A DNA stretch of 64,000 bases from Candidatus Moraniibacteriota bacterium (lineage in GTDB: Bacteria > Patescibacteriota > Minisyncoccia > Moranbacterales > UBA1568): the NCBI GenBank assembly GCA_016699975.1, contig CP064994.1, positions 711,828-775,827 of the forward strand, read 5' to 3'. Position numbers and translations under genes: made by a program. The notes under the pieces were generated by a model that was not told the origin of the DNA, did no database searches, and worked only from the letters and a program-made list of their open reading frames with translations. This document shows, piece by piece, positions 16,742-62,814 of this stretch. Every line of letters starts with the position of its first letter. The stretch's first letter is position 1.

Positions 16742-16780
16742 AGAGTTTTAAGCACTTGTCTACTATCCAATCCTTTCCCT

Positions 16781-16993
16781 CTAAGACGAACTTTTTTCAC
16801 GATCAAGAATCCTCATCACATCCCCCCTCCGATACCGCCTATCCCCTCGCGTCCCAAACCGGATCGCTTTCAAAAATCCTTTGTTGTCCCAGTTACGGAG
16901 CGTGTTCGGGTGACAATGCAAAATCTCACATGCCTCCTGAAGCGTCAGAATCTCTGATGCTTTTTCTTTGGGTTGTCTTTTCATAGGTTTCAA
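16781..16993 (-). CDS. excisionase-family helix-turn-helix DNA-binding protein
   Basis: 70 aa. LTLQEACEILHCHPNTLRNWDNKGFLKAIRFGTRGDRRYRRGDV fits the Xis/MerR-type HTH of mobile elements. Confidence 0.7.
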   Translation of the reverse strand: MKPMKRQPKEKASEILTLQEACEILHCHPNTLRNWDNKGFLKAIRFGTRGDRRYRRGDVMRILDREKSSS

Positions 16994-17033
16994 CTTACTA
17001 TGAGTCTACAAGATATTCTAATTTACGCAAAGT

Positions 17034-17819
17034 ATGCCCCGAAAAAGAGGATGCAAGGCATTTGGTCTTCCGATACAACTCATTGTTTTTAACAATGAAC
17101 TCCCGCTATTGGCAAAGACTCTTATGGGAGATGTGCCTGATATTGCGCCAATCTTTCAACATGGCTCAACACCAACAAGCACCCTCTTTCTCAAACCAAA
17201 TCTCTCCGTCCAGGGAAAATTCAGGCTTGAAGGAAAAGAACAGCACCGTATTTACCATATCCAACAATTCAGATTCAATTACATTGACGGAAAAGGAAAT
17301 AGGAATTTCGACGAGTTGATTGGAGGAAGGCTCTATCCGAGTATCGTAGATATCAAATCAAAAAACGAGCTCCTACAGTTCATTGCCAATAACCATCCAG
17401 ATTTTTCAATAGTTCCATCGTCTGAAGAACAAGAACACCTGAATAAAAAGTATTGTGATGCTGGATTAAAGGGATACCCAATATTCGATATTGTATACTC
17501 GGTCGATTCCAAACCAAAAATGTCTTTTCCAATATCGAAAGATCAATGGGAAGCTATCAAGGACATAAACAGAGATTTCTTTTGGGAGAAAATCCAGAAA
17601 TTTCAAAGTTTTGTTCAGGGATGGATTACCAAAGAATCAGACAAAGCGCTTTCTGAAGATACCTTACTTTGGCTTAATCGGGAACTTGAAAATGTCAGCC
17701 CCATTCTCACGGCGTACAAAGGATCGGTTTGGGAGCGGGTTCGAGACGATAATGTCAAGCCATCAACAGAAGAGGAGCGGGAACAGCTCGCGAAAAAGAT
17801 ACGGCGATTCGGTTTGTAA
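17034..17819 (+). CDS. hypothetical protein
   Basis: 261-aa ORF divergent from the HTH gene. No motif recognised. Confidence 0.45.
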   Translation: MPRKRGCKAFGLPIQLIVFNNELPLLAKTLMGDVPDIAPIFQHGSTPTSTLFLKPNLSVQGKFRLEGKEQHRIYHIQQFRFNYIDGKGNRNFDELIGGRLYPSIVDIKSKNELLQFIANNHPDFSIVPSSEEQEHLNKKYCDAGLKGYPIFDIVYSVDSKPKMSFPISKDQWEAIKDINRDFFWEKIQKFQSFVQGWITKESDKALSEDTLLWLNRELENVSPILTAYKGSVWERVRDDNVKPSTEEEREQLAKKIRRFGL

Positions 17820-43097: not shown

Positions 43098-43884
43098 TCA
43101 CTCATCTTTCATGTGCGGCATGTCGCATTCGAATTCGTATCGAAGGCGACAGATGCGCGAAACAAATCTCCAAAGAATTTCGGGCGGAACCGTAATCGTT
43201 TCTCGCGCACAACGAGCTTTCAATTCTTCGGCTTCATCGGGAGCGAAATAGCCGTGATGCCGATAGGCATCGATACGAATTCGAATGCTGTCCGGATTGA
43301 GCTCGGGATGAAATTGCGAAGCATACACATTGGTGCCCACACAGATCATCTGCACCGGACACAGAGGTGACGTTGCAAGCAGTGTTGCCCCGAGCGGAGT
43401 CGTCTCGCATGCTTCTTTGTGTCCCGTAAAAGCGCGAAACGGCGAGGGAAGTCCCGAAAGAAGCGGATCACAATTCCCTTCGTCAGTCACGAAAATATCA
43501 GTGGGTCCGGCCGCTTCCGCGAAAGCGTTTTTCGATACGTTCGTGCCGAGCAAAGTTGCAAGAATTCCAAGCCCGTAACACGCGCCAAAAAATGGCATAT
43601 CTCACTCCAGAATTTCCCCAAGAAGCGATCGAAATCGACTCTCGGCACCGCGTTCAACCACACTCTTCTTGTACAGAGGATCGCTCACATGAAACGATCC
43701 GCCGCCCGCCCAGATCCCCCGCATACTAAGCAAGTGACCGCGACGGCATTTCACCTTTTTCCCTTCGCACACATTCAACTTCTTCGCGCGAAAGTTGCCC
43801 CCAGCAAAGAACCGACGCGAGTTCTCCGTTTGCCGCTTCATCTTCTTCGGGGCGAAACAATAAGAGAAGAAGTTGTTTCTTCAT
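43098..43884 (-). pseudogene. class I glutamine amidotransferase-like protein interrupted by one frameshift and one in-frame TGA
   Basis: The N-terminus MKKQLLLLLFRPEEDEAANGELASVL... shifts frame at the T5/A5 run 43756-43760 into ...GIWAGGGSFHVSDPLY...LLGEILE. A TGA (43602-43604) follows, and the same frame then continues DMPFFGACYGLGILA...QFHPE, the nucleophile elbow and HPE of GATase1. Confidence 0.6.
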
Positions 43885-44269
43885 AGTTTCTGAGAAACAG
43901 AAAACTCCGACACACTTTTTTCTTTTCCACTCAAGGAGCGCATTCCTCCCCGCTTCCCTTGCTCCGGAAAAAGAAAATCCGCCGTGCACGCCGCACGACG
44001 GATTAAGAAAGTTGTTACTCTTGTGATTCGAGATACTGTTTGGAGTACCCCGATAACAGGAAGGGAAAGATCGCGATGATTTCTCCACTTTGGGCACGGA
44101 GCGCAGAGACGAGAAGAAGTTGTCCCGCAAGAAGAAGCGGTGCCGATGGAGTCCGGGGCGATAGAGTTCCCTCGCAACGTTTCGCAGCCGCTCTATCACT
44201 TCTTTCATCGCCTCCGAAATACCAGAAAATTCTCGAGTGAGGTACTCCCTGAAACCAGGCGTGGTCATA

Positions 44270-45616
44270 TCAAACCATCTTTCCCACGAAAGTTTCGAAA
44301 TTTTTTTCGAGCATGTCGTCGGAAAAAATTTCCGAAGTACGCTCGGAGATGAAGATGAGAACTGGTGATTTCGCAAGAGAATCAAAATCGTTTCCAAAAA
44401 TTTCAGCAATGATCTCCTCTTCTGCGCTCGGGAAACGCCCCGACAAACGATTCATTCGAACAATGCCGCTCGCAAAACTGGCAACATACGCTATATTTCC
44501 GCCCGGAAGAATTGGGAACGGGGTGGCGGCAGAATAAGGCCCACGGGCATAATTTGTGGCAACGACAACTGTCTCGCGGTGCAAACTGAACGGATAGACT
44601 CCATCACGATTCAGCAAAAAAGCAAGAACCGCATTCGACAAAAAGAGGCGAGCTGCGACGCGAATCTTCAACGGATCAGCATCACGATCTCTTCGGCGTA
44701 CCTCTTCTTCGACGAGAGGAAGCGCTTCCTCTGAAATCGAATGAATCGCCTTCCAGAGAGCACGGATACTTGAGGCATACCAACGCTCAAAGTCTAAAGA
44801 AGGCACCATATCGCGACCCAATTTTTCTCGAAAGAGGCGCCCCAGTATTCTTCCTTCTTTCGTCCAGAGTTCCGTTGAAAGTATGGCTCCTTTTTTCCCT
44901 GCTCTTTCAAGAACTGCCTCCGTCAAAACGGTCGAGGGTGAACTATTTTCGAGAAACTGAGGAAGTCCCGCATACAAAAACCCCCTTATGAACGTCGAAG
45001 GACGTTTGAAGAACGAGAACTTTTCTCGCGCTTCTTCGCCGAATCGCTTCTCCAAAAAACGAAAGAGCGCTTCGACGATTGCCGACTTTCGCTCAACATC
45101 TGCTCGAAGACCACCGTCTTCGCACGCCTTGCCATACCATTGTTTTTGTTCTTCAGCTTTTGCCGCGCACCCCAAATGGCTATCAAGAACGAGTACTATT
45201 TTCCCAAATTGTTGAATGCCATCAAGAATCGCTTTTGTGAAATCGCCTTCTCTCAAAAAGAGTTTTCCGTCTTCTTGAAGAAGCGCATCACTTATGTCGC
45301 CCGCCGGCGTTCGGAAGGCTCCAAACGAAAATCCGAATACGGTTTCCGAAAGTACGCGGCCATCGATACAGAGCGTGAGGTAAAAAGACTCGAGAGGAAT
45401 TTCGAAAAACGCTTCGGCAATTTTCTTCGCCTCGGCGAATTCATCAGAAGTAAAATCATGAACGCGCGCATTTCTCGTCGCTATCAATGATTTAAGAAGG
45501 AACCGAAAATACTCCAAAGACTTCGAATCACCCGGAAGGGCAGGATACTTCTCAGGAACCGCACGCAAATAAGAATCAATCGCCACCATAAGAGATCTCC
45601 CAAAGAAGGGCATCAA
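44270..45616 (-). CDS. hypothetical protein with beta-carbonic-anhydrase-like zinc-site motifs
   Basis: 448 aa. LCIDGRV (CxDxR), then FGAFRTPAGD (compare FV.RNAGN), then VLVLDSHLGCAA (HxxC) 64 residues after the first Cys. This is the order and spacing of beta-CA zinc ligands. No other family recognised. Confidence 0.45.
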   Translation of the reverse strand: MMPFFGRSLMVAIDSYLRAVPEKYPALPGDSKSLEYFRFLLKSLIATRNARVHDFTSDEFAEAKKIAEAFFEIPLESFYLTLCIDGRVLSETVFGFSFGAFRTPAGDISDALLQEDGKLFLREGDFTKAILDGIQQFGKIVLVLDSHLGCAAKAEEQKQWYGKACEDGGLRADVERKSAIVEALFRFLEKRFGEEAREKFSFFKRPSTFIRGFLYAGLPQFLENSSPSTVLTEAVLERAGKKGAILSTELWTKEGRILGRLFREKLGRDMVPSLDFERWYASSIRALWKAIHSISEEALPLVEEEVRRRDRDADPLKIRVAARLFLSNAVLAFLLNRDGVYPFSLHRETVVVATNYARGPYSAATPFPILPGGNIAYVASFASGIVRMNRLSGRFPSAEEEIIAEIFGNDFDSLAKSPVLIFISERTSEIFSDDMLEKNFETFVGKMV

Positions 45617-45869
45617 TTGTTAAACTGTCGGGCTTTTCCGACAAACCGAGAAGAGTATAAAAGGAAAATCGAAGAAGCGCAAGAGAAGGACTTCCCCAAG
45701 GATTCTCCTCGATTCGACTCATTACATCACAAAGAAAAGCTCGCTCCAAGATAAAAAACGCGGGGAAGAAATACCACAGGCTCCTCGTACTGCACCCATA
45801 CTCTCCCCTCTCTTCTCACGAGCTCCCCTTATTTCTCGAAGAAAAAAGGGGGAAGGATGAAGCGAGATG

Positions 45870-46256
45870 TCAGTCTTTCATCGAATGAAGAGCAATCGCA
45901 TTTCCTTCGGAATCTTCGATCCAGGCAATATATCCGTTTTCGCCAATCGACTTTCGCGGGAGAATAACAGGAACACCCATTTGCTCCGCTTTCTCGATCG
46001 CTTTTCGGACATTTTCCTCGGGAGCTGTAAAGTAGAGGATCGATCCGTGGTGAGAAGGAGTATAGCCCGTCCCCAACATAAGTGCGCCCGGCGCACCGTA
46101 AGCATCCCTCACGGATGGGAAAAAACTGAGAAGATACCCGCCCTCCATTTCCATTCTTTTTTCAAACGAAAAACCGAAAAAATCTTTATAAAATTTTTCC
46201 GCACGATCCATATTCGTGACCGGTACTTCGAACCAGCCAACAGGATTAGCATTCAT
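45870..46256 (-). CDS. VOC-family (glyoxalase/bleomycin-resistance fold) protein
   Basis: MNANPVGWFEVPVTNMDRAEKFYKDFFGF...GYIAWIEDSEGNAIALHS is a typical VOC beta-alpha-beta-beta-beta module. Confidence 0.8.
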   Translation of the reverse strand: MNANPVGWFEVPVTNMDRAEKFYKDFFGFSFEKRMEMEGGYLLSFFPSVRDAYGAPGALMLGTGYTPSHHGSILYFTAPEENVRKAIEKAEQMGVPVILPRKSIGENGYIAWIEDSEGNAIALHSMKD

Positions 46257-46316
46257 AGGCGTACTATAAGAAATTATTTTCCCTTTGCAGAATGATAGCA
46301 CCAAATCCCTGGGGAA

Positions 46317-46568
46317 TCACGAGGGGAATGAAGCGGTGAGTTCGACATCGAAATCCGTCTTCTCCGCCGGCGCTTCTCCACCTCCTGGAGCTCCCGCTCC
46401 CGGCATCATACCTCCCATCATAACGGGCGCTGCTGCCGACACACCAAACTTTTCTTCGAGCACTTTGACGAGTTCCGAAAGATCAAGGACACTCATCTTT
46501 TCGATTTCTTCAACCAACTTCGCAAACTTGGCGGGCACTTCCACCGCCTCTTTTTTTTCTTCCGACAT
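46317..46568 (-). CDS. rplL: ribosomal protein L7/L12, truncated (C-terminal domain missing)
   Basis: [49 protein letters not shown]...[12 protein letters not shown] matches the L12 N-terminal domain, hinge and first residues of the C-terminal domain, then ends FPS-TGA. No frame downstream encodes the remaining ~60 aa of the C-terminal domain. Confidence 0.75.
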
Positions 46569-46706
46569 ACGCATTATGAGTAAAAAATTACATGAGAATT
46601 CTTTCTTCCGACACAATTCCCCCACTTTTCTTTATGGAGATTCTTCTCTCTTTCTCTTCCAAATTGAGAAGAGGAAAATCTCCGAACATTTCCTTGAGCT
46701 ATCCAT

Positions 46707-47225
46707 CTAGGCACTCTTTTGTTCTGACACCTGTTGGAGCACACGAACCAATCCGGAAATATTTCCCGAGAGAGTTCGCGCAAATCCCGCAATCGGCGCC
46801 TGGAGCGTTCCCGCAAGCTTCGCCCTGAGTTCAGTGAGCGAGGGAAGTTTCGAGAGCGCAAGCACCTCCTCGGTCGACAGGACTTTTTCTCCAAGCGTCC
46901 CCGCGGACACGACGAGCGCTTTATGTTTCTTCGAAAACTCGACAAGAGTTTTCGCAGCCGAAACTTCGTCGGGCGAAAACGCAGTCACGATTTGTCCGGG
47001 AAGCGTCTTCGCATCGAGAGAAACACCAACCGAACGAAGCGCGATTGAAAGAAGTGTTTTCTTCATGACCCGAAGCGAACCCCCCATTTTACGCATCTCT
47101 CGCTGGAGTTCCATCGATTCCTTTACGGTGAGCCCCGCATACCCCGCAAAAACCAACGATTTCGACGTCTGAATACACTCCGTCACCTGGGAGACGATTT
47201 CTTCCTTCTGTTGTTTGGTTTGCAT
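46707..47225 (-). CDS. rplJ: ribosomal protein L10
   Basis: MQTKQQKEEIVSQVTECIQTSKSLVFAGYAGLTVKESMELQREMRKMGGSLRVMKKTL matches the L10 N-terminal domain. Start taken at ATG 47225 rather than the extended ORF start. Confidence 0.85.
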   Translation of the reverse strand: MQTKQQKEEIVSQVTECIQTSKSLVFAGYAGLTVKESMELQREMRKMGGSLRVMKKTLLSIALRSVGVSLDAKTLPGQIVTAFSPDEVSAAKTLVEFSKKHKALVVSAGTLGEKVLSTEEVLALSKLPSLTELRAKLAGTLQAPIAGFARTLSGNISGLVRVLQQVSEQKSA

Positions 47226-47313
47226 AAATATCTTTTCTTGCTCTTCATTATCATTCTTCTCATTTCTCAGGAAAAGATTCGACCGATCTTTCCCCGTTCC
47301 ATTTTTTCGTACA

Positions 47314-47336
47314 AAAAAATCCGCCTTCCGCGGACC
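47314..47336 (-). promoter_or_regulatory. possible attenuator hairpin in the rplJ leader
   Basis: The minus strand reads TCCGC-GGAAG-GCGGA followed by T7, ~90 nt upstream of the rplJ start, within a 417-nt untranslated region. This would be consistent with an L10-leader-type element, but that is not verified. Confidence 0.3.
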
Positions 47337-47642
47337 ACGAACGAGTACTCTCAAAGCCGAACACAGAGAAAGAGGCGGCTTCGACATTTCCTCGTGAGGA
47401 TATTGCACGCCTCGATTCAGCGAATACGAAGCGAAACCTCAGGTCTTTGGAATATTCGACACTCTCGTTTTTTCTTTTTTCCTTTCTTTCTTTTTCTTCA
47501 ACTTCTCACTTATCGATATTTGTGCCAAGACTCTTCGAGACGAGGCGCGATAGATAATCGAAAAATTTTGGAAAGAAGAAAGGAATGCTAGAACGATCTC
47601 TCTTCAACTTCTCTCACGAAATCACATTCACGTCACCTTCTT

Positions 47643-47960
47643 TTATTTTTTTCCACTCTCTTCGGCAGCATCAACAGGGGCTTCTTTCGCGACTGCTTTC
47701 GGCATTTTCACTTTTTGCTTCGGTTCCTTCAGAATTCCTTCCCGAACGAAGAGATTGTGTGCCGTAAGAGATGCCTGGGCGCCCTTCTCAATCCAATGAA
47801 GAATACGTTCTTGCCGAAGTACTGATTTTTTGGAAGTAGGATCGTAACTCCCCAAAACTTCTACATGCCGTCCTCCCGGCGCTACGGTATGTTCCTGAAG
47901 CACCACGCGAAAACTCGGGCGATGTTTTCTTCCCACACGGTTGAATCGAATCGTAAGCAT
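47643..47960 (-). CDS. rpsP: ribosomal protein S16
   Basis: MLTIRFNRVGRKHRPSFRVVL...GSYDP...L..ERILHWIEKGAQ is the canonical S16 sequence. Confidence 0.9.
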   Translation of the reverse strand: MLTIRFNRVGRKHRPSFRVVLQEHTVAPGGRHVEVLGSYDPTSKKSVLRQERILHWIEKGAQASLTAHNLFVREGILKEPKQKVKMPKAVAKEAPVDAAEESGKK

Positions 47961-48150
47961 AAAAAATTCGCTCTAGAAAGCTTTCCCCCACTCTATCGCA
48001 CCAATCATGCACTGTCAAGCCTCGAGCCCCCGCTCTTTTTTCTCTCTTTCCCCCATTCGTCTTCGTTGGAGTTGGCGGGTGACGAGAGATATGGTACAGT
48101 AAAAAACTTTAGAATTCGAAGAGCTAAAACCCAACAATCCAAAATTTCCC

Positions 48151-49074
48151 ATGTCCATCCTCTCTGCTTCTCATCTTTCAAAAACATATTCAAGCGGTGT
48201 GCGAGCACTCGACGACCTTTCTCTCGATATTCAGTCGGGAGAAATTTTTGCTCTTCTCGGCCCAAATGGTGCCGGGAAAACAACATTCATCGGTATCATA
48301 GCGGGACTCGTAAAGAAAACGTCTGGCTCCGCCACAATCGACGGCTACGATTTCGAGCGCCATTGGCGCGAGGCAAGAACGCGAATTGGCCTCGTCCCGC
48401 AGGAAATTCACCTCGATATTTTCCTCTCTGCGGAAACAATTCTCAAAAATCAACGCGGCTTCCATGGAAAACGCCCGAACCCCAGACTGGTCGAAAAACT
48501 GCTGAAAGAATTTTCCCTCTTCGAGAAAAAAGATGAGGAAGTCCGCTCCCTCTCGGGTGGTATGAAGCGCCGCGTCCTCATTGCAAAAGCGCTCGTCACC
48601 GAGCCCAAAATTCTCTTTCTGGACGAGCCGACCGCAGGGGTCGATGTCGAACTTCGGAAAGATATGTGGAATACCGTAAAGAGACTGAAAGATGAAGGAG
48701 TGACCGTCATTCTTACGACTCACTATATTGAAGAAGCCGAACTTCTCGCCGATCGAATTGGCATCATCAATAGTGGCCGACTGATCCTGGTCGAAGAAAA
48801 ACAAACGCTCATGAAGCGAATGAGCGAAAAAACCCTCGACATCTCGCTCAAGAACCCGCTTCCTCGCCTTCCCGAGCACCTTTCGATGCTTCCTCTTTCC
48901 CTATCATCGGATGGCCACACACTTACACTGCGATACTCCGCGGGCGAGAGAAATATTCCCGCTCTTCTTACCGAACTCGAAAAAGCGGGGATTTCGGTCG
49001 AAGATCTCTCCACCCAAGAAACCTCTCTCGAAGAAATATTCATAAACCTTACCCATAAGTCGGAAACCGTATGA
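48151..49074 (+). CDS. ABC transporter ATP-binding protein (ABC-2 subfamily)
   Basis: Walker A GPNGAGKTT, signature LSGGMKRRVLIAKAL and Walker B ILFLDEPTAGVD. Confidence 0.9.
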   Translation: MSILSASHLSKTYSSGVRALDDLSLDIQSGEIFALLGPNGAGKTTFIGIIAGLVKKTSGSATIDGYDFERHWREARTRIGLVPQEIHLDIFLSAETILKNQRGFHGKRPNPRLVEKLLKEFSLFEKKDEEVRSLSGGMKRRVLIAKALVTEPKILFLDEPTAGVDVELRKDMWNTVKRLKDEGVTVILTTHYIEEAELLADRIGIINSGRLILVEEKQTLMKRMSEKTLDISLKNPLPRLPEHLSMLPLSLSSDGHTLTLRYSAGERNIPALLTELEKAGISVEDLSTQETSLEEIFINLTHKSETV

Positions 49075-49838
49075 GCGTAAACTGGATCGGCATACGAAGC
49101 ATTTTTCTCAAAGAAATCGGCCGGTCGAAAGACGTGGCGATACAGGCATTCGTTTCTCCGGTGCTTTCAACCGTCCTCTACTTTTTGGTATTCGGAACCG
49201 CCATCGGCAATCGTCTCCCAGACCACTTTGGCGTTCCCTACTCGGCCTTCATTGTTCCGGGACTCATCTTGATGGCGCTTCTTATGAACTCTCTGATGGC
49301 CGCCTCAAGCGGCATTTACTTCCCGCGCTTCATCGGGACAATGAGCGATCTCCTCTCGGCGCCACTCTCCCTCTTCGAAATCACCTGTGGCTTCGCGCTC
49401 GCTGCTGCAGCTCGCGCGATCGCAATCGGCGCCACGATTTTTCTCGTCGCTTCACTCCTTACCACCGTTCCTGTCGTTCATCCCGTGCTCGCTCTCATTC
49501 TCTCTGTGCTCATCACCTTCTCCTTCGCGACTCTCGGACTCATCCTTGGCATCTGGGCAAAAGATTTCGAACAACTGAGCCTGGTTCCCACACTTATCCT
49601 CACGCCCCTCTCATTTCTCGGCGGAATTTTTTATTCAATCGAGATGCTCCCGGGCGCGTGCCGCACTCCAACACTTCTTAACCCCATCTACTACCTTGTG
49701 GACGGGCTTCGTTTCAGTTTCTTCGGTGTGTCGGACACGAATCCCTGGCTTTCCTTCGGCGTTGCTTTCGCGTTTCTCGCTTTTTGTCTTTTCTTTCTTT
49801 CGCTTCTCCTCCGAAAAGGCTACGGCATGCGGCAATAA
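49071..49838 (+). CDS. ABC-2 type transporter permease
   Basis: 255 aa with 6 predicted TM segments. 4-nt overlap with the ATPase gene. Confidence 0.8.
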   Translation: MSVNWIGIRSIFLKEIGRSKDVAIQAFVSPVLSTVLYFLVFGTAIGNRLPDHFGVPYSAFIVPGLILMALLMNSLMAASSGIYFPRFIGTMSDLLSAPLSLFEITCGFALAAAARAIAIGATIFLVASLLTTVPVVHPVLALILSVLITFSFATLGLILGIWAKDFEQLSLVPTLILTPLSFLGGIFYSIEMLPGACRTPTLLNPIYYLVDGLRFSFFGVSDTNPWLSFGVAFAFLAFCLFFLSLLLRKGYGMRQ

Positions 49839-49876
49839 ACAAAGGGGCCACTCAAAATCACGAGAGGAAAAAGAAT

Positions 49877-49915
49877 AAAGACGACCTCTTACAATGAGGT
49901 CGTCTTTGTTGTTTC
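49877..49915 (+). terminator. rho-independent terminator
   Basis: AAAGACGACCTC-TTACAAT-GAGGTCGTCTTT (12-bp stem) followed by GTTGTTTC. Confidence 0.6.
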
Positions 49916-50383
49916 AAAAGCAATTCCGGCGAGCATTTGCAGAATCTCTTTCTTCACAAGCGATTTTCTCTGTGCTCAGAAACTGAGTCGTCCCCTCAGT
50001 AATCAGAATACCTTAATTATCATTTAATTTTCCCAGATTGAACTTACTGCCGTATCGTTCAAATATTTTCTCAAGATCATGGAGCATATTTTGGAGTATC
50101 TGCATGAGACAAAGGAACAAAATCAACAAATCCGAGCGCTTCATACGATTCCAACTCCCTTCCAAATTCTCCGTCATCACACACTTTAATCAACTTCGAC
50201 ATTTGGCCCTGCCAACAAAGAACCTGCGCCTCCCAAAATAATTTTTGAAAAATCTTGAAGATTTTCTGGTCACAAAGAGTGAATAAATTTCACTTCACTG
50301 AAATAGAGGATTTTTATCCTTTTATTCTTGAAAGCTCAGACCAATTCGTGAAGAATTTTAAGAAATTTACCAACAAGAATTTC

Positions 50384-51202
50384 TCACTTTGTGAGCTCCT
50401 GCTCCTCGCGGGCAAAAACGCGATTTTCAATCGGCGCGTCACCAACAATTGCCCCGTCCATAAGAGAGAGCATGCGTTTCCCGTGACGCGCTGTCGTCGA
50501 TTCGTGCGTCACCAAAATAACAGTCTTGCCTTCATCGTTTAATTTTTGCAAAATCGCCATCACAGCAAGTCCTGATTTCGAATCGAGATTTCCCGTTGGC
50601 TCGTCGGCAAAAATAATATCCGGATTATTGACGAGTGCGCGCGCGATCGCGACTCTTTGCATCTCGCCACCAGACAACTGATTGGTAAAATACGAAGCGC
50701 GATGTTCCATTCCGACTGCAACCAAAGCTCGCATTACGCGATCGCGCGCTCGGCTTCCTCCCAAGGCGTTCCGAAAAATTCCAAGAGACGAAAGAAATGA
50801 ATGCCACCCGCTTTCTTCTGCCACTCCCCGAGACTCCCGACGCTTCGATTCGTACATATCATAGAGAAGCGGGAGTTCAACATTTTCGAAGACGCTCGTG
50901 CGCGGCAAAAGGTTGAAAGATTGGAAAACGAATCCTAAATTTTTATTGCGTATTTCGGCGAGACGATCCGATGAAAACGCATTCGTATCTTCTCCTCCCA
51001 AAAAATATGACCCCGCGGTGGGACGATCGAGAAGCCCAAGGAGATGCATCAGTGTCGACTTTCCCGAGCCCGACGGGCCCATAAGCGCCACAAATTCGCC
51101 CCGATCAATGGAAAACGTTGCCCCGCGAAGCGCGACCGTTTCCACCGCTTGGTCGGAGAGGTACGTTTTTCCGAGCGCGCGACAAACAATAAGTGGCGTC
51201 AT
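50384..51202 (-). CDS. ABC transporter ATP-binding protein (MacB/LolD-like) with an internal ~25-aa insertion
   Basis: Walker A GPSGSGKST, Q-loop, signature LSGGEMQRVAIARAL and Walker B IIFADEPTGNLD. An extra segment, SKRRESRGVAEESGWHSFLSSLGIFRNALGGSRARD, lies between the Q-loop and the signature. Confidence 0.85.
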   Translation of the reverse strand: MTPLIVCRALGKTYLSDQAVETVALRGATFSIDRGEFVALMGPSGSGKSTLMHLLGLLDRPTAGSYFLGGEDTNAFSSDRLAEIRNKNLGFVFQSFNLLPRTSVFENVELPLLYDMYESKRRESRGVAEESGWHSFLSSLGIFRNALGGSRARDRVMRALVAVGMEHRASYFTNQLSGGEMQRVAIARALVNNPDIIFADEPTGNLDSKSGLAVMAILQKLNDEGKTVILVTHESTTARHGKRMLSLMDGAIVGDAPIENRVFAREEQELTK

Positions 51203-51220
51203 ACCGTGAATCTTCCGGAA

Positions 51221-52539
51221 TTATCGCTTTTCTGCGTCGGAAATAATCGCATCGTTTTCCGACAAGCCGGAGAGAATCTCAATCATTCCATCGTCGCCGC
51301 GAAGCCCCGTCGTTACCATCCTTGTCTCGACGCGCGCATCAGGAAGAAGGACGCGAGCCTGCTTTGTCTCTCCCGATTCTTTCAGCAGGCGTTCGGGAAG
51401 GAGAAGCACGCCTCGCTTCTCAGAAATATGAATGTCGGCGTCTCCCGTCATTCCCGGCTTGAGACGTTCATCGCGGTTCGATAAGCGAAGTTTCGCTATA
51501 TAATAAACGACGTCTTGAATCACCGTAGCGTCTGGCTCCACGGAAATTACTTCGGCCAAAACGGTGTCGCCTTCCTCGAAGGCGTCGAAAGAAACCGTGG
51601 CGCCCATCCCAGAGCGCAGACGCGTTACATCCGACTCAGGAACTTTTACTTCAAGCAAGAGATCGTATGAAAGAAGTTTTCCGAAAGGGCTCGCGATCGA
51701 AGTGCCGACCACTTCGCCTTCCTCGTAATTCAGTTTCACAATTTTTCCATTTACCGGCGCGACGATTGCTGCTCGTTTTCCATTCTCAAGCGAAACAGCA
51801 TATGCGGCTTCCGCCGAACGAAGGGCGCTCGTTTCGAGTAAGCGTTGCCCCGACGAAGTGAGGGTTTCGACTTTCTCGCGCGCGGCACTCCACGCATTTT
51901 TCGCGGCAGTAACAGAGTTCTCACGATTTTTTTCGATTGTCTTGCGAGCTTCATCCGCCGATTTTCGGGCGTTTACTGCGGTCGTCAAGGTAAGCTTGGC
52001 ACTCCGCGATTCACTACTGTCTTCCCCTCGAGCATCCACCACTCCTTCATAATATTTTTTTGCGTCCGATTCGTAATCCTTGGCGTTTTGGTACGCAGCA
52101 TCCGCTGCCTTCCTCTCTTGATCTGCCGCACTCTTTACGGATTCGTAGTACAACTTCGCATCCTCTGCGCACGCGATGCTTCCCGCGTCGTTTCTTCACG
52201 GAGAAGCGACTCTGCTGAAGCGCGATCGACCGCCGCCTTTGCGCTCGCAATCTGTCCGTCGAAAGTTTTCGATTCGAGTCGCGCAACTGGCTCGCCCGCT
52301 GCCACATCCTCCCCAACTTTCACAGAAACGGAGGCAATACGGCCAGTCATTTCGAAATTGAGATCAATCTCTTGTTCCGCAACAAGAGTCGCACTCGCGG
52401 ACACCGTTTCACGAAGGTCTCCACGCACAACCTGAGTCGTTTCGTACGAAGGAGGGGCATTCACTCGACGAAAGTACCACCATGCCCCGGCGCCAACCAC
52501 AAGAAAAAATATGAGGATGACAATTCGCTTTTTTTTCAT
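51221..52539 (-). CDS. efflux transporter periplasmic adaptor (HlyD/MacA-type membrane fusion protein), frame broken
   Basis: N-terminal fragment: TM, then VVRGDLRETVSASATLVAEQEIDLNFEMTGRIASVSVKVGEDVAAGEPVARLE. C-terminal fragment: coiled coil, then APVNGKIVKLNYEEGEVV and a beta-barrel. They lie in different frames, with the shift somewhere in 52150-52210. Confidence 0.8.
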
Positions 52540-52681
52540 ACAAAGAAAATTCGGGAAAGTTTTTGAGAGGAGCATTCAGCCATTCTTCAGTCGCCCGCAC
52601 CCGCGATGAGAAAAAACGGGATTCAGAGCCTGAAAGAAAGAGAACGACATGCACCAATTCCTTTTCCCCATCAAAAATTTT

Positions 52682-53179
52682 TCAAGCAGGAGAAGAAAGA
52701 GGAGCCGACTCTTCTTTGCCTCGAGCGGCATCAAGCGCCTCGTTTACCATGCGATCCGCCTCACGATTCTCTTCGCGACGAACATGGTGAAAACTGACCT
52801 CCTCAAACCAACGCTTCGCTCCAGTAATACGATCGAACCACTCTTTCATTCGTGGGTGTTTCACTCGGTAACGGCCGGTTAACTGCCGCATCGCAAGCTC
52901 GCTATCCATTCGACATTCGAGGTGAACGGCGCGAGCACGCTCATCTCCCACTTCCTGACGCACCCGATCCATGCCAGAAAAAATCGCAGCGTATTCGGCC
53001 TCATTGTTAGTGCCATGACCCAAGAACGTTCCGTAGCGGATATCCAATGTTTCAATAAAGACTCCAAGCGCCGAAGGTCCCGGATTTCCTCTCGAGCCTC
53101 CATCGGTATACATCACAATTTGTTCCATGCTCATGACGAGTTTCTTGAAAATTTCTCTCTCCTGTGTTTCCTCCTCCAT
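52682..53179 (-). CDS. rnhA: ribonuclease HI
   Basis: VMYTDGGSRGNPGPSALGV...TNNEAEYAAI...MDSELAMRQL...REENREADRMVN carries the RNase H DEDD residues. Confidence 0.85.
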   Translation of the reverse strand: MEEETQEREIFKKLVMSMEQIVMYTDGGSRGNPGPSALGVFIETLDIRYGTFLGHGTNNEAEYAAIFSGMDRVRQEVGDERARAVHLECRMDSELAMRQLTGRYRVKHPRMKEWFDRITGAKRWFEEVSFHHVRREENREADRMVNEALDAARGKEESAPLSSPA

Positions 53180-53295
53180 TCTGAAAAGAGTATACCACTC
53201 TTTTCATCTCAGGAAAAAGAAAACTGCCAGGACTTCTTTTGAAGTCATGGCAGTTAAATGATTTTGATTGAGGAATTGAGGCATGCCAAATCCTT

Positions 53296-53808
53296 CTAGA
53301 GTAGGTTCTGGGACTCAGCTGCAAGTCGAGCCCTATACTCAGCCTCACTGATGATTCCAAGGAGGAGACGGAACGACCAGCGAGTTTGCAAAGCTGTGTC
53401 TCCGGACAATTCGCCCTCGGAAGGAGGTCTTTGGTACATTCTTCCCAACAGATAGCAGTGAATATTCGTATGAAAAAGGATGCACTGAGCATAGATCCGG
53501 GCTTGTAAAAGTTGTTCTTCAGAAACTTGTTTCTGAAGAACTTTTATTACTTTTGCATGCCGTTTCATGAATGCAAAGGACCCCTCCTCATTGATAAGCC
53601 AAAACACTTCATTCTCTGCCAGGGTTCTCTCAGAAAGACCGTTTGCTCTCGCAAATCTCCCGATCGCGACATTCTGTCGAAAGAAAAGCACGAGGAGTAC
53701 AATAACAGCCCCTTCGAATTCTTTTATATCGTCAAGGAACCATTTTGAATCCTGTGATTCCAAAAATCCACTGACTCTCTTTTGAAAAATAGCAAAATGT
53801 CTATTCAC
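53296..53808 (-). CDS. hypothetical protein
   Basis: 170-aa ORF, mostly helical in character. No motif recognised. Confidence 0.45.
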   Translation of the reverse strand: MNRHFAIFQKRVSGFLESQDSKWFLDDIKEFEGAVIVLLVLFFRQNVAIGRFARANGLSERTLAENEVFWLINEEGSFAFMKRHAKVIKVLQKQVSEEQLLQARIYAQCILFHTNIHCYLLGRMYQRPPSEGELSGDTALQTRWSFRLLLGIISEAEYRARLAAESQNLL

Positions 53809-53956
53809 ATTGCCTCCTTAAACTCAGTCTTGCCTCTTTCGAAGTCAAGAAGACAACAAAAAAACGCTTCAACGAAACGCCTCTAAAAAAATATCAATCT
53901 TGGTGTTCGTTTCAGCAGCCGAATTGTAAAGGAACTCCTTTACAACTGACTCAATC

Positions 53957-55669
53957 CTATGTCTCCGACCGACAAATGTCAAGAAGCCTTAACTCAAGCT
54001 TTACGGAGCCATTCCAGTGATTCTCTTCCACTTCTCCTACCACGTCGATACTTTCTCCCGAAGAAAGTTTCCCCCATCTTTCTCCCAGGCCGAATCCAAT
54101 CGCCCCGAAAATTTTTCCATCACTTTCGAGTGAAAGTTTGAGGTGTTTTTCGCCGTTTCCGACGCAACGACTCTCTCGCACAGAAAGAGCGCGAAAAAGA
54201 AAAGTGGGTGTCTTGTTTCCCATGCCAAACGGCGCGAGCTTTTTTATATGTTCAAGAAATGCGAGGGTTATTTCTCGAGGCGAGAGTTCGAGATCAATGT
54301 CAAGCGTCGGTGTCATATCCGTTTCCGCCAGCTTCTGATTCACAATCGATTCGAGTTTTTCGTAAAACAAAACAAGGTTCTCGTTTCGAATCGTTGCGCC
54401 CGCTGCCTGCGCATGACCGCCGAATTTCTCAAGGAGTTCCGAGCACACACCAATTGCCTCAATGATATTAAGTGCGGGAATACTGCGAAACGATCCCGTG
54501 CTCTCGGTCTCGCCTTTCGCGAAGACAGCTGTTGGCTTCCCCAGCTCGTGAGCGATTTTCCCCGCGACAAGCCCCGCGACCCCAAGCGGGTAGTGCTCTC
54601 CTACTGCAAAGACAAGCTTTCGATCCTTGTAAAGATTTTCGGCGACAGCACGTACTTCATTTGCCAAGGCTTCACTCACTTTTTGCCGAGATCGGTTTTG
54701 GTTTTCGAGTTCAAGAGCGAGGAGACGCGCCTCGCTTCGCGATTCAGTCATCAAGAGTTCGTGTGCCGCTTTTGCATGAGCCATACGGCTCGCCGCGTTG
54801 ATCCGAGGTGCGATTTGAAACGCGATCATCTGGGCATCGGGGATCTGGTCTTCGTCAATGCGAATATTTCCCACCTGGAACATTTCCTGCAATCCCACGG
54901 ATCTCGTTTTCGACAAGACGATGAGTCCGTATTTTACGAGTATGCGATTTTCCCCGACAAGCGGCATACAGTCTGCTACCGTTCCGATCGCTACCACATC
55001 AAGAAGCCATTTGAGTTCTTCTGTTCTCTCCGGCAGAAAACGCGCAAAGAGAGCACGAGCAACCGTAAAAGCGGTTCCCGCACCACAGAGTTCGCGAAAC
55101 GGGTAATGAGAAGCAGGAAGCTTCGGATTGATAATCGCAAAAGCGGCCGGCAATTCTTCTGGGACGTGGTGATGGTCGATGACGACAACTTCCATGCCCC
55201 GTCGGTTCGCATCGGCAATTTCCGCATGGTTCATCATGCCGCAATCAACGGTGAAGACAAGTCGTATACCTTCGCGTTCAAAGACGTCGAGTGCATTTGG
55301 GTGGAGACCGTGGCCTTCGGTTGTTTTGTCGGGAATATAAGGAACAACCCGCAGAGAAAGTCGCTCGAGCGCACGCCGAAGTACGACCGAAGACGTAATA
55401 CCATCAGCATCATAGTCTCCAAAAATTCCGATCGTTTCACCATTTTCCCGCGCCTCGCCGACACGCGCAACCGCCTTCTCCATATCCGGAAACAGAAAGG
55501 GATCACCAAGATCGGTTTCGTACACGGGACACAAAAAAGCGCGGCGCTCCTCTTCGGTTTCCACGCCACGATTTTTGAGAAGAAGGGTAAGTATCGATTC
55601 TCCCGAAATATTTTCTTTTCTTTGGGGAGACGAAAGAAGATTCCAGCGACGATTCATGCAAAAAGACAT
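53957..55669 (-). CDS. recJ: single-stranded-DNA-specific exonuclease RecJ
   Basis: DHH motifs (IGIFGDYDADGITSS, TVDCG, VVVIDHHH) and a DHHA1 region (GGHAQAAG). Confidence 0.9.
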   Translation of the reverse strand: MSFCMNRRWNLLSSPQRKENISGESILTLLLKNRGVETEEERRAFLCPVYETDLGDPFLFPDMEKAVARVGEARENGETIGIFGDYDADGITSSVVLRRALERLSLRVVPYIPDKTTEGHGLHPNALDVFEREGIRLVFTVDCGMMNHAEIADANRRGMEVVVIDHHHVPEELPAAFAIINPKLPASHYPFRELCGAGTAFTVARALFARFLPERTEELKWLLDVVAIGTVADCMPLVGENRILVKYGLIVLSKTRSVGLQEMFQVGNIRIDEDQIPDAQMIAFQIAPRINAASRMAHAKAAHELLMTESRSEARLLALELENQNRSRQKVSEALANEVRAVAENLYKDRKLVFAVGEHYPLGVAGLVAGKIAHELGKPTAVFAKGETESTGSFRSIPALNIIEAIGVCSELLEKFGGHAQAAGATIRNENLVLFYEKLESIVNQKLAETDMTPTLDIDLELSPREITLAFLEHIKKLAPFGMGNKTPTFLFRALSVRESRCVGNGEKHLKLSLESDGKIFGAIGFGLGERWGKLSSGESIDVVGEVEENHWNGSVKLELRLLDICRSET

Positions 55670-55694
55670 TCAAGCAAACACAGAGGAAAAACAA

Positions 55695-56249
55695 TTACGG
55701 TATGCAAATCAGTTCTGCCTCGAAGAGGCGTGTGGAAGCATCTTTGAGTCGCATGCGAAGCACAAATTGCTTCCCATCATTTTCGGAACACGAGAAATTC
55801 GATGGGAGGCGCATGTCCGATGCGAGCCGCTGCGCATCAAGCGACCACGGATCAAACGCAATCCGATACTCCATTTCAGCAACCAGAGAACGAAGACGAG
55901 CCACAACTTCGTTGGGCGTCACCACGTCGCGGACAATAAAATCGTTCACACCCATTTCTCTGGCGCGCTTTTGGTCTTCCTGGCGACCCAAGTGAGAACT
56001 AAACGCGATTGGAAGAGAAGCCGTCGTCACATTTTTTCGAAGCGCCTCTGTCAAAGCGAAGCCATCCATTCTCGGCATGATAATTCCGGTAAAGACGATG
56101 TCGGGCCGATTGGCGGTAGCAAGTTCCAGCCCTTCAAGTCCATCTTTGGCTTCGGTAACCTCAAATCCCGCCCCTCGAAACACTTCCGCATAGAGGCTAC
56201 GCGTATCGGTATCGTCGTCGACCAAGAGAATTTTAAATACTTTATTCAT
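55695..56249 (-). CDS. response regulator receiver protein with a short uncharacterised C-terminal domain
   Basis: KILLVDDDTDTRSLY...DIVFTGIIMPRMDGF...PIAFSSH is a REC domain. Start taken at MNKVFKILLVDDD (56249). Confidence 0.8.
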   Translation of the reverse strand: MNKVFKILLVDDDTDTRSLYAEVFRGAGFEVTEAKDGLEGLELATANRPDIVFTGIIMPRMDGFALTEALRKNVTTASLPIAFSSHLGRQEDQKRAREMGVNDFIVRDVVTPNEVVARLRSLVAEMEYRIAFDPWSLDAQRLASDMRLPSNFSCSENDGKQFVLRMRLKDASTRLFEAELICIP

Positions 56250-56329
56250 ACAATTTTCTGTAAAGAAAAGCCTTTCGAGCAAAAGTATAGCAGGAAAGAG
56301 AAGAAAGGAGAATGAGAGAACTGCGAGAC

Positions 56330-57334
56330 TCATTTTTGTTCGACATTTCTCCTCACAAACGTAAGAAAAGTAAGCGCAAGGAGCGCTGCTGAGAGAAATG
56401 AAATTGTTTTCCCGAACGGATTTGTAAGGAGCGCCACAATACCGATGAGTGCCGTGACGCTCGCGTACGAGAAAACGATTCGGCGATCCGACCACCCAAG
56501 CTCGCGCAAACGGTAGTGAAGATGCCGAAAGTCTCCCCCCAAAAAAGGGGATCGTCCCGAGCGAAGCCGCTCCACAATGACAGAGAGCGCATCGAGAACG
56601 GGCAGAAGAAGCGTGAGAAGTGCCGTCGCAATTTTCGTTCCGGACAAAACAGCAAAGGAAGCGAGCGTAAACCCGAGAAAGAACGAGCCCGCCGTGCCGG
56701 AAAATATTTTGGCCGGAGGAGCGTTAAAGAGAAGGAGTCCCGATACCGATCCCAAAAGTGCCATCGTAAGAATGCCAAGGGGCGGTTGGTTCACTTCCGG
56801 AAAGAGCGAGAGCACGAAGAGAATGAGCGAAGAAACGAGAGCAATACTCGGCAAGAGACCATCAATTCCGTCCGACCAGTTGAGAACATTCATAAGAAGT
56901 ATGACCCAGAGAAAAAGAATGATTCCCCCGAGAACTGCTCCCCCCGGGAGCGTATCAAAAAACACCGAGCCCACAAACGGAACAGGGACAGAGTAGATAC
57001 GCATCCCTCCCCACCCGATGAGTGCGACGAGCGCGCTCTGAAACAAAAATTGCACTTTCCATCCGAAGCGAAACACATCGTCCGCGAGTCCGAAAAAAAG
57101 GATGGCGACACACCCCACCATCACGATTCCAAGTTCTCTCGACACAACCAAGTGCGGATCCCACAGGAGCGCCATCACAAATGCAGGAACGATCGCGGCG
57201 CCACCAAAGCGCTTCCAGAAAGAAGGCACCCTCTCACCAAAACGGGATCGCAGATATTCCAAGAGAAAAAGAATCGAAACACAAATGCAAAACGCCAAAA
57301 GAAATGGCGGAAGAAAAAGTGAAATGATGGACAT
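56330..57334 (-). CDS. glycosyltransferase family 4 polyprenyl-phosphate sugar-1-phosphate transferase (WecA/MraY family)
   Basis: 334 aa, ~10 TM segments. GLADDV, NVLNWSDGIDGL and RSPFLGGDFRHLHYRL motifs. Confidence 0.8.
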   Translation of the reverse strand: MSIISLFLPPFLLAFCICVSILFLLEYLRSRFGERVPSFWKRFGGAAIVPAFVMALLWDPHLVVSRELGIVMVGCVAILFFGLADDVFRFGWKVQFLFQSALVALIGWGGMRIYSVPVPFVGSVFFDTLPGGAVLGGIILFLWVILLMNVLNWSDGIDGLLPSIALVSSLILFVLSLFPEVNQPPLGILTMALLGSVSGLLLFNAPPAKIFSGTAGSFFLGFTLASFAVLSGTKIATALLTLLLPVLDALSVIVERLRSGRSPFLGGDFRHLHYRLRELGWSDRRIVFSYASVTALIGIVALLTNPFGKTISFLSAALLALTFLTFVRRNVEQK

Positions 57335-57556: not shown

Positions 57557-57964
57557 CTAGTTCACCAGAATGAGCGCCGAAACCGCAATGAGCGCTGCGC
57601 CCTGCAGCAGAAATGCCGACAGGAGGAGAAGAAGCGCGGCAATCGTTTCTCCTTTTCGAAAAAAGGAAAAGGCGAGTACCCCATGAAGCATCAAGAAAAA
57701 AAGAGCGCTCGCAGGGAGGAGAAATGCCTGTTGCGCTCGTCCCGTGAGGTCGATGCCAAAATAAGCATTGTAGCGAAGCACAACCGTTTCATGTCCTGTC
57801 CCCAAAAAAAAGGCAACGAGTCCCCAAAGAAGAAGATTGAGACCTATCGAGAGCACGAGAAAAAGCGCGCGGCGCGTATCATGAACAAAAAGAGATCCCG
57901 AAGAAAGCGGTGTTTTTTTGGAAGCATCTCCATGAGGGGACACTGCTTCGGAATGCCGTTTCAT
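57557..57964 (-). CDS. hypothetical integral membrane protein
   Basis: 135 aa, 3-4 TM segments. 4-nt overlap with rmuC. Confidence 0.5.
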   Translation of the reverse strand: MKRHSEAVSPHGDASKKTPLSSGSLFVHDTRRALFLVLSIGLNLLLWGLVAFFLGTGHETVVLRYNAYFGIDLTGRAQQAFLLPASALFFLMLHGVLAFSFFRKGETIAALLLLLSAFLLQGAALIAVSALILVN

Positions 57965-59131
57965 ACAAGTCGCGCTTCTCTCGTTTCCCCACCCTCCTCT
58001 CCCACACTTTCCGCAGCCCTTGTCTCAAGCTCCATCTCTGGTGTTCCTTCAATGCGAGTTCTCGTAATTTGATCTTCCACTTTCCCGAGTCGTTTGTCGG
58101 CTTCTTCGTACTTTTTCGCGGCATTCGAAATGTGACTCCCCAGCGTATCGAATTCTTTCGAGAAACGCTCATACTCGCGCCCGAGCCGATCCAGATTCCC
58201 CAAAATACTTTTCGCACGTTTCTCGACTTGCATGCCCTGAAGTCCCAAAAGGAGCGTTCGCATATAGGCATAAAAAGAATTTGGAGACACGGGAACAATT
58301 TTCTTTCGAAAGAGGTAGTCGGCAAGTCCGTCCCCTTCATTGTCTTTCACGACGATCTCGTAGTAGACGTTTTCTGCGGGAATATACATGAGTGCAAAAT
58401 CAGCGTCCCTCTTCGGGAACGATATATTTGCGGGCGATCGCATCGACATGCCGACGCACGTCCATCGAGAACAATTTGCGAAATTGCTTCCGACTCTCGT
58501 CGGAATCAGCCTCTACCAATTTTCGAAAATTTTCGAGCGGAAATTTCGAATCAATGCTAATAATGCCGCCCTTCAAATGTATCGCGGCATCAACCGTTTC
58601 GCCATTCTTAAAAGCATACTGAATCGAGTAATATTCCCGTGGGAAAATCTGCGACAGCATATCTTCGAGCATGAGCTCTCCAAACCCGCCACGAATTTTT
58701 GGCGAGCGAAGAATATCCTGAAGCGACCGCACGTCTTTCCCGACCTCAAGAATTCGACTGCTTGAATGCTTCACTTCTTGAAGCGCGACTCCTACTTCTT
58801 CGCGAACGCGTCCCATTTCGCCGCGAACCTCGGTAAACGATTTCGCGGCTCCGTCGAGGCGTTGATCGAGGCGCGCGGTATTGTCTTCGAGGCGGCGATT
58901 CACGTGCTCCTGAAAATTCCCAAGCTGCTGCAAAAAAGCTGACGAAAATCGATGAATGTCTTCCGCACTCGCTCGCTGCATGGTTTCCATCCGCCGCGCA
59001 AGATCATCACGCATCAATTCGGTTTCTCGAGAAGCCTCTCCCTTCCCACCAAAAAAGCGGTCGAACAAAAGAAAGAGAAGGATACCGAGAGCGACGAGGA
59101 GCATTGTAATTTCAAAAGCGTTCATGAACAT
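57961..59131 (-). CDS. rmuC: DNA recombination protein RmuC, frame broken
   Basis: N-terminal TM and coiled coil, then PKIRGGFGELMLEDML...DAAIHLKGGIISIDSKFPLENF. The second fragment continues DFALMYIPAENVYYEI...VSPNSFYAYM. The junction is near the C3/G3 run at 58406-58408. Confidence 0.85.
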
Positions 59132-60322: not shown

Positions 60323-62814
60323 ATGGCACGAAAACAGACCCCGCCTCCCGCTTCCGAAAAAATAACGGCGACGGCAAACGAGATATTCGTTGCAAAGAGC
60401 GGATTTTTGAAGCCGTACGCAACCGGCTTTCAGTATCTTCCCGACAATATTGCTCGGGAGCCTTTGGGTATGCTCGCGGGCGCCCTCGCGATCGACGATC
60501 GAAGTGAAACGTCGGGATATATCGTCAACTTTCTCGCCTCCCTCGCCAAAAAAGAGTACTATCTGAATCCTCGTCGCCCCGCGATCGAGAGTTTTGAAGC
60601 AGCTCTCCACAAAGTAAACCTGGGGCTCTCGGAGCTCGCAAAAGAAGGAAACACCGAATGGATCGGGACCTTGAACGCTGCTGTGTGTGCGGTCGAACGC
60701 AATAATTTACATTTTTCTGTAGCGGGCAAAGCGAAAGTACTCCTCCTGCGAGACCGACGCCTCTCTGTCATTAGCGACGGACTCGTCGAAACGGGAGAAT
60801 ATCATCCCATGAAAACATTCACCGATGTAGCAAGTGGGAAAATCTGTGCAGGCGATCGCATTCTCATTACAACACCAGAACTTTTTCCGCCATTTCCGAA
60901 CCCGAACTCGAGCGCTCGGCGGCTCGTCTCGACCGCGAGGGATTGGAACGATTCCTTGAAACCGCTGTCGTGAATCGTCTCGACCTCTCAGCAAGCGTCC
61001 TCATCGACATCCAGGCGATCGCCGAGTACGCGCGCCCAGCGGCGCCAAAGCGACCCCTTGCCTCTCCATCATCCGTTCCGAATGCCTGGAGCCTCACGGC
61101 TTTCGAATTTTCGAAACAAACCGGGATGAGTGTGGAAGCAGGCCTTGAGGCACGAGAAGAAGCTGAACGAGAAAAAGAACGCATCGACGAAAAAACCGGG
61201 CACATCTATATCACAGGGGACAGCATAGAAGAGCCTCGTCGCGAAGAATGGGAACGGGTTCGCCTCATCTCCGAAGAGTGGAAAGAGCGTTTGGGAGCGA
61301 TCTTTCGCCGCGGCATGCGAAGCATGCGCGAATATGTTGCCACTCGAAAGAAGCGCCGAGAAGAGCGTCTCTCCCTCCCTTCTCCTCAAGAGGTGACTTC
61401 CGAAGCAGTGCAGATACACACGCGAGAAACCTCCCCGAAAGAAGCAACAATGCACCCTTCCGAAACTTTCCCAACAGAAAAGAGTGAGAAAATCTTTCCT
61501 CCTCTTGAGGAAGAATCACTTGAGAGCGAGAGCGCTCCAGAAAGAGATGTAGTCGAAAAGAGAGCTGAAGTTTCAATTGACTCTGCCATCCTCCCACCGG
61601 AACATTCCGCCAACAACACTATTTCTTTTTTGAAATATTTTGCAAAACCATTTTTTGGCGCCTTGGTCAGCAATCTCTCCAAACACTCGCGGACAGTCGC
61701 ACACAGTGTTCCGCGCTTCTTCTCAAGAAAAACAGTTCACGTTCCTGTCCGTGAAGAGACTCCTTCAACCCTTTCCTCGCTGTTTCGACCGCTCTTTTTT
61801 TTCTTCCCAAGACTCGAGAAGGAAGCCAAGCGCGCTTGGAACTTTTGGAACCTACTTTCTCCAACAAAGCGTCGTCTTCTCCAAGGAATCATGCTTCTCA
61901 CACTCTTCGCAATCATAGGTTTCGTCATATTCCTTCTTACCAAAGATGCTCCCCCTTTGCCCGAAGAACCATCCTCTTTGAAAGAGAATCCCGCCTCTCC
62001 TTCGCCGCTCACGACTGAAAAAAATATTCGCTTCCTCAAAAATCCAACCACTCTCTTTGAGGGAGAAAGAATCCTTTCCATTGTACGACTCAAAGAATTT
62101 CGCCTCGTCATTACCGAGACGGCACTCTTTCGCCTCGGCGAACCCGGGAGTACTGCAGAAAAAGTGCCGTATCCCGAGGGCCGAGAAGCGAAAAAAGGGG
62201 TCGCCATGCTGGACTTAAATGCACTCATCCTCCTCATGAAAGACGGCACCATTCGTTTTTATACGCCTGTCAACAATCGATTTGCAAATGAGTCGTTTTC
62301 GCTCCCCAATTCTTCCGGAACTGCTGCCCTCGGCGCCTATATGACCTATTTATATGTCGCGAATTTCGAACAAAATTCGATAACGCGTCTCCCGCGCTCC
62401 GAAGGCGGATTCGCCAGCGGGGTGTCGTGGCTCAAGGAGCCAGTTGAGATTGACGAGCAGACTTCGCTCGCTCTCGGCGAATTCCTCTACCTCGCTCATC
62501 CAAGCGACATACGCGTCTACTCCCGTGGAACGCTCCAGAATATCTCCTTCGAAAAACCAGCACTTGTGCCAGACATCACCGCGCTTTCCCTTCCTGATCT
62601 CGAATCAACCTCTTTGTTTGCCCTCGACCAAAAAGAGGGGCGCATCTTTGAGTATCGCAAGGATACTGGCGCCATCCTCGCGCAGTACGCCCATGAATCC
62701 CTGAAGGGTGGAAAAAATTTCACCGTCGACACAAAGAACCGAAATGCGCTCGTGAATACCGAGACGCATGTTTTCTCTTTCTCTCTCGACGAACACTCTC
62801 TCCTCTCTCATTGA
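60323..62814 (+). CDS. large hypothetical membrane protein (possible PP2C/SpoIIE-like N-terminal domain), frame broken at a T5 run
   Basis: The fragments 60323-60973 and 60943-62814 join at 60882-60886. Adding one T gives ...ITTPELFSAISEPELERSAARLDREGLERFLE. The segment GTLNAAVCAVERNNLHFSVAGKAKVLLLRD is PPM-like. There is a central TM helix (LLQGIMLLTLFAIIGFVIFLL). Confidence 0.55.

Follow-up and report, generated by a model that had tools for sequence, protein, structure and literature searches.

We infer that the truncated rplL gene of the Patescibacteria genome CP064994 is an assembly or consensus deletion and not a real biological feature, and we consider this the probable explanation. 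The stretch of DNA analysed here (the window, 64,000 nucleotides of CP064994) encodes a ribosomal protein bL12 that ends shortly after its hinge. By comparing the window with near-identical contigs of the same species, we found that a single deletion of 303 bp, with exact breakpoints and colinear flanks, removes most of the C-terminal domain (CTD) and is private to this assembly.

An rplL reading frame without the factor-binding domain

The rplL open reading frame lies on the minus strand at 46317-46568, from an ATG at 46568 to a TGA at 46319-46317, and encodes 83 aa. Its product carries the N-terminal dimerisation and L10-binding domain of bL12 (PF16320, Ribosomal_L12_N, E = 1.3e-18 over residues 16-60 in Pfam), then a flexible hinge, which we read from the sequence as a Gly/Ala/Pro/Met-rich stretch at residues about 45-68, and 12 residues of the CTD, after which it ends in FPS and the stop codon. 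The position of the gene is also that of a bL12 gene, immediately downstream of rplJ and on the same strand. The CTD family PF00542 has no Pfam match on the 83-aa product, on which PF16320 is the only domain, and 12 of about 71 CTD residues are left. In a six-frame tblastn search of the 64-kb window with E. coli and Thermotoga L12 and with their isolated CTDs, the only L12 match was the N-terminal part of rplL itself (E = 1.5e-7), the rest being noise (E of at least 0.2), and no second L12 CTD was found. This search ruled out both a frameshift hiding the CTD in another frame and a stand-alone CTD elsewhere in the window. The first-pass annotation had described an rplL without its factor-binding CTD, in which the hinge and about 12 CTD residues run into FPS-TGA and none of the downstream frames encodes the remainder; the Pfam search, the ORF translation and the six-frame search bear out these three points in turn. 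The range it gave, 46250-46568, also takes in the first codons of the neighbouring VOC gene. A protein-cluster look-up showed that the 83-aa product has been deposited as QQS20673.1, 'hypothetical protein IPL87_03850'; this entry and QQS20672.1, the exact 128-aa VOC product, are both on a 1,048,819-bp Candidatus Moraniibacteriota MAG contig.

The L12 CTD provides the conserved site that IF2, EF-Tu, EF-G and RF3 contact, and L12 is required for stimulating the GTPase activity of EF-Tu and EF-G, factor binding being severely impaired without it (PMC3299993). The best 120 homologues in a collection of 5.8 billion proteins are all 134-146 aa long and all carry both PF16320 and PF00542. The best 80 loci in GTDB species representatives, nearly all of them Patescibacteria, all align through residue 138 or 139. 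The top match (P0001) has 139 aa and is 100% identical to the truncated protein over the first 80 residues.

A 303-bp deletion private to CP064994

Logan contig SRR11674037_5149 (L001-L003) matches the window over 43829-64000 at 99.6-99.9% identity, with L001 reaching 99.91% over 46330-56567 and 99.60% over 43829-46329. The sole large difference between the window and L001-L003 is at the rplL locus. Window position 46330 corresponds to L001 10239 and the adjoining position 46329 to L001 10543, so that the window lacks exactly the 303 bp of L001 10240-10542. This junction (46330/46329) was placed by alignment to L001, L011 and L012, which contain both breakpoints, and to L013, which contains the left one only. 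The missing segment comprises rplL codons 81-139, the stop codon and a 122-bp spacer, and within this spacer lie a terminator hairpin (L001 10458-10491), whose 15-bp stem is perfectly paired, and, ahead of the VOC gene, a promoter-like site (L001 10498-10525). Residues 1-80 of the truncated bL12 are identical to those of the full-length 139-aa bL12 of the conspecific contigs, and FPS and the stop are translated from DNA that is intergenic in the intact sequence. The window also has a private synonymous substitution at 46341 (GAG to GAA), 11 bp from the junction, where all four other contigs have G.

Full-length bL12 of 139 aa is encoded by four of the four short-read conspecific contigs (L001, L011, L012 and L013), which are 99-99.9% identical to the window. 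The 303 bp are present, with both breakpoints as in L001, in L011 (SRR15021097; 99.9% identity in the left flank and 99.1% in the right) and in L012 (SRR32934939; 99.8% and 99.0%), while L013 (ERZ15185987; 99.9%) shows the left breakpoint and ends 182 bp into the missing segment. The supplements of the MAG paper carry no SRR numbers that would tie L001 (SRR11674037) to a treatment plant, so this contig may or may not share the MAG's sample of origin. The 26-mer that spans the junction in the window occurs in 0 contigs of genome_contigs or metagenome_contigs; the intact left-junction 32-mer is likewise absent from metagenome_contigs, so that JGI has no contig of this strain. Exact matches to the truncated L12, the VOC protein and one other protein of the window were sought in the contig index, with no hit. 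With the gene intact in four contigs and the junction 26-mer absent from these two collections, the deletion is private to CP064994. A corrected sequence with a full-length L12, which the first-pass annotation had named as decisive against its finding, is in effect supplied by these four independent conspecific assemblies.

Spontaneous slippage deletions usually show microhomology at the junction. Here the microhomology is 0 bp, no repeats bracket the breakpoints, and the inverted repeats that we found do not flank them. Slippage through a repeat or microhomology was rejected on these grounds, as was a hairpin bridging the breakpoints. The missing 303 bp were also considered as a mobile or excisable element and rejected, since they consist of ordinary rplL coding sequence, a terminator and a promoter-like site, with no flanking repeats.

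Gene order around rplL and strain polymorphism

Directly upstream of rplJ-rplL lies rpsP (S16; 47643..47960, minus strand; PF00886). The rplJ gene (L10; 46707..47387, minus strand; PF00466, E = 7e-19) is intact and identical to the 226-aa Logan call. Its frame is open for 226-233 aa (46707-47408, minus strand), and translation probably starts at the ATG at 47225 (172 aa), given that in the 233-aa ORF the Pfam match does not begin before residue 64 and that the orthologue in CP064974 has 171 aa. No L10 leader or other RNA family was found between 43000 and 49000 (no Rfam match at E <= 0.1). The usual rplK-rplA is absent upstream of rpsP-rplJ-rplL, and rpoBC is absent downstream. In CP064974, a closed Moranbacterales genome, the order is S16 - L10 - L12, and the genes that come next are unrelated and do not include rpoB/rpoC. 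The same holds downstream of L12 in the more distant L007, a contig too short upstream to include S16 and L10. That CP064974 shares the S16-L10-L12 order points to a conserved non-canonical arrangement in family UBA1568, and the missing rpoBC continuation is, judging from the gene order of these relatives, a lineage trait unrelated to the truncation.

The VOC/glyoxalase-family gene lies at 45870..46256 on the minus strand (128 aa from an ATG at 46256), and PF00903 covers residues 23-138 of the 144-aa ORF (E = 2.7e-10 in Pfam), which places the product in the VOC superfamily. On the 29.8-kb Logan contig of run SRR11674037 the order is S16 - L10 - L12 (139 aa) - VOC (128 aa) - 57 aa - 524 aa, and the VOC gene follows rplL in three of the three contigs that reach far enough downstream (L001, L011 and L012). 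In this species, the VOC gene natively follows rplL. As the first-pass annotation had noted, the VOC ORF continues in the rplL frame after the TGA: its upstream open frame begins at a TTG at 46304, 13 bases past the rplL stop. The distance between the start codons of rplL and VOC is 615 bp (205 codons) in the intact contig, of which 303 bp (101 codons) are missing here. Since both lengths are multiples of 3, the shared frame is a coincidence, and we rejected it as a sign of fusion or readthrough.

The substitutions in the VOC gene relative to L001 recur in the other strains L011 and L012 in a mosaic pattern. They are therefore real polymorphisms, and the window represents a real, distinct strain. 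The mosaic sharing of VOC variants with L011 and L012 suggests that strains living together have recombined. Against a background of about 1 substitution per kb, the differences from L001 cluster in two places, with 3 in 34 bp in an ABC-2 permease gene (49653-49686) and 5 in 354 bp in the VOC gene (45891-46244). Elsewhere in the window, L014 (SRR32841056) is colinear over 10877-14288 only and has no match upstream of 10877. L014 12057-15954 carries a 1262-aa gene where window 14289-16797 has about 2.5 kb of different sequence, and similarity returns at only 91% over window 16798-17797. From this alignment, window 14289-16797 looks like a strain-variable island.

Coverage and small indels of the source assembly

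CP064994 is the single circular contig of the MAG Hirt_18-Q3-R61-65_MAXAC.378_cln, which is classified as Patescibacteria; Paceibacteria_A; Moranbacterales; UBA1568 and has coverages of 5.38x (Illumina) and 10.93x (Nanopore) (Singleton et al. 2021, Supplementary Data 3, PMC8012365). Nanopore reads were assembled by CANU v1.8, and the assembly was polished with Racon, Medaka and about 5x of Illumina reads (Singleton et al. 2021, PMC8012365). The sequence thus stems from a low-coverage long-read source (npcov 10.93, ilmcov 5.38).

Besides the deletion, the window has 10 small private indels in the approximately 25.4 kb that short-read contigs overlap, and 8 of these fall in homopolymer runs of at least 3 bases. 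In the window the indels break four genes, all of them intact in the short-read contigs. An 830-aa ORF (60323-62814, plus strand; no Pfam match on record), intact in L003 and L004, is split into 216 + 623 aa by a private A6 to A5 change at 60887, where L003 and L004, contigs of different runs, both have A6. RmuC (57961-59131, minus strand; 388 aa in L003) is split by TT to T at 58403 and G4 to G3 at 58410, each a private 1-bp deletion and the two separated by 7 bp. A HlyD/AprE-like periplasmic adaptor (51221..52575, minus strand), intact in L001 with 451 aa, is divided into 146 + 310 aa by the loss of one G from a G3 run at 52164 (GGG to GG); an ABC transporter ATPase gene at 50384-51202 adjoins it. 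Finally, a conserved hypothetical gene (43726..45616, minus strand), intact in L001 with 533 aa, carries four of the indels: G3 to G2 at 44155, A6 to A7 at 44307, which truncates the product to the 448 aa seen in the window, G4 to G5 at 44985 and A5 to A4 at 45025, the last two together rewriting 13 residues of this conserved protein. The two intergenic indels are an inserted T at 43715 and a T5 to T3 change at 13244, where four independent contigs agree against the window. The ~530-aa hypothetical protein at 43726-45616 has no Pfam domain, and in Moranbacterales such a protein is encoded after rplL and variable genes (533 aa in L007, 519-530 aa in L008-L010), a conserved linkage to the L10-L12 locus.

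Homopolymer indels are a known signature of an insufficiently polished Nanopore consensus, and here homopolymer indels that break open reading frames occur together with the deletion. Long-read errors of this kind fragment and pseudogenise genes (PMC12007338), and errors of tens to hundreds of bp have been described for long-read assemblies (PMC8442456; PMC12007338). We infer that the 303-bp gap shares its technical origin with the small indels.

Discussion

A model that could unify these observations starts from the one 303-bp deletion, private to CP064994, which removes rplL codons 81-139 with the stop codon, the terminator and the VOC promoter-like site at a single stroke. The reading frame then enters former intergenic DNA for three codons (FPS) and stops. 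The deletion could have been introduced during low-coverage Nanopore assembly and polishing, or retained at this stage from one or a few aberrant reads, and the real rplL of the organism would be an ordinary 139-aa gene, as in the four independent conspecific assemblies. Universality of the CTD among relatives, together with 99.9% identity to intact siblings, makes a loss of the CTD biologically implausible, and the loss of the terminator and of the candidate VOC promoter in the same event as the CTD looks like damage rather than adaptation. A few observations weigh against an artefact. Homopolymer errors in Nanopore data are typically far smaller than 303 bp, the approximately 25 kb compared showed no second medium-sized indel, and a segment present in most reads might have been expected to come back on polishing with about 11x Nanopore coverage. 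Among the explanations of the first-pass annotation was a chimeric assembly join near 46320. The evidence does best support an origin in assembly or consensus, although what lies at 46330/46329 is an internal deletion and not a join to unrelated DNA.

The most serious competitor is a real and recent 303-bp deletion allele private to the Hirtshals population, which could be either a minority or non-viable variant picked up by a few long reads or one tolerated through an intact rplL elsewhere in the 1.05-Mb genome; we regard it as unlikely, with roughly a third of the weight that we give to an assembly or consensus deletion. Its breakpoints are clean, the deletion is present in the deposited consensus, and the region compared yielded no second medium-sized assembly error. 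Since the VOC polymorphisms, in their mosaic with L011 and L012, mark a strain distinct from those of the comparison contigs, a real strain-specific structural variant is possible. However, such an allele would have lost the very part of bL12 that binds the translation factors (PMC3299993), a part kept in the best 120 homologues and the best 80 GTDB loci, and four conspecific assemblies are intact at 99-99.9% identity. The 64-kb window offers no second L12 CTD in compensation, the junction lacks the microhomology of a slippage event, and the sequence around it is full of technical indels.

A functional, naturally truncated stalk protein, which would keep the hinge and the domain that binds L10 and lack the one that binds the factors, is in our view very improbable. 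All that speaks for it is that the ORF is open, has an intact PF16320 and follows an intact rplJ, and that Patescibacteria lack some ribosomal proteins. Yet siblings at 99.9% identity have the full gene, the FPS-stop tail is former intergenic sequence, the same event took away the terminator and the candidate VOC promoter, the CTD is universal in the relatives examined, and neighbouring genes of CP064994 are broken by indels too. The first-pass annotation had placed a genuinely truncated stalk protein last among its explanations, and we agree with this ranking. We see hardly any chance that a living Moranbacterales strain has the CTD-less protein as its only bL12 and recruits EF-Tu, EF-G and IF2 without canonical stalk heads.

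A rearrangement, a mobile-element insertion or a chimeric join of unrelated regions, by which the two ends of rplL would have been parted from each other and the 5' end from rpoB/rpoC, has next to no probability. The first-pass annotation had named a rearrangement or insertion breakpoint, with an intact rplL elsewhere, among its explanations, and had noted the absence of rpoB/rpoC downstream and the unrelated VOC gene abutting the truncated ORF, which speak for such an event. In L001, L011 and L012, however, the two flanks keep their order and orientation and lie just 303 bp further apart, and this colinearity excludes it. The order rplL then VOC is native, the missing segment is rplL coding sequence and terminator instead of a mobile element, and rpoBC is equally lacking after L12 in CP064974 and L007.

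The question matters on two levels. If the truncation were true and tolerated, a natural ribosome without L12 CTDs would overturn their indispensability for recruiting translational GTPases; our evidence points away from a real, tolerated truncation. On the practical side, it is a caution that a 'closed, circular' CPR genome, CP064994, has a 303-bp gap in an essential ribosomal gene annotated as 'hypothetical protein', and, where it was compared, gene-breaking indels at a density of about one per 2-3 kb. Its record could mislead the scoring of ribosomal-protein presence and absence, of marker-gene completeness and of pseudogenes in Patescibacteria.

Three known systems help to place the truncated gene. 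The first is the class of Nanopore assembly errors, with which it shares a CANU MAG of about 11x polished with about 5x Illumina and a background of 10 private, gene-breaking indels, 8 of them homopolymeric, whereas its 303 bp lies at the upper end of the described sizes and its technical origin is deduced. The second is that of engineered or chemically depleted L12 systems in vitro. Laboratory L12 fragments reduced to the N-terminal domain bind L10 and cannot support factor function, and the likeness lies in an architecture of N-terminal domain plus hinge that could still bind L10; those variants, however, were engineered or depleted, and the truncation described here is known only from a deposited environmental genome sequence. 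The third is the full-length bL12 of the same species (P0001/P0122, 139 aa), which has the same N-terminal domain, hinge, first 12 CTD residues and site downstream of rplJ. The truncated form differs from it by the loss of residues 81-139, that is most of PF00542, and by its non-homologous FPS end; it is a fragment of an ordinary bL12, with nothing new in its mode of action.
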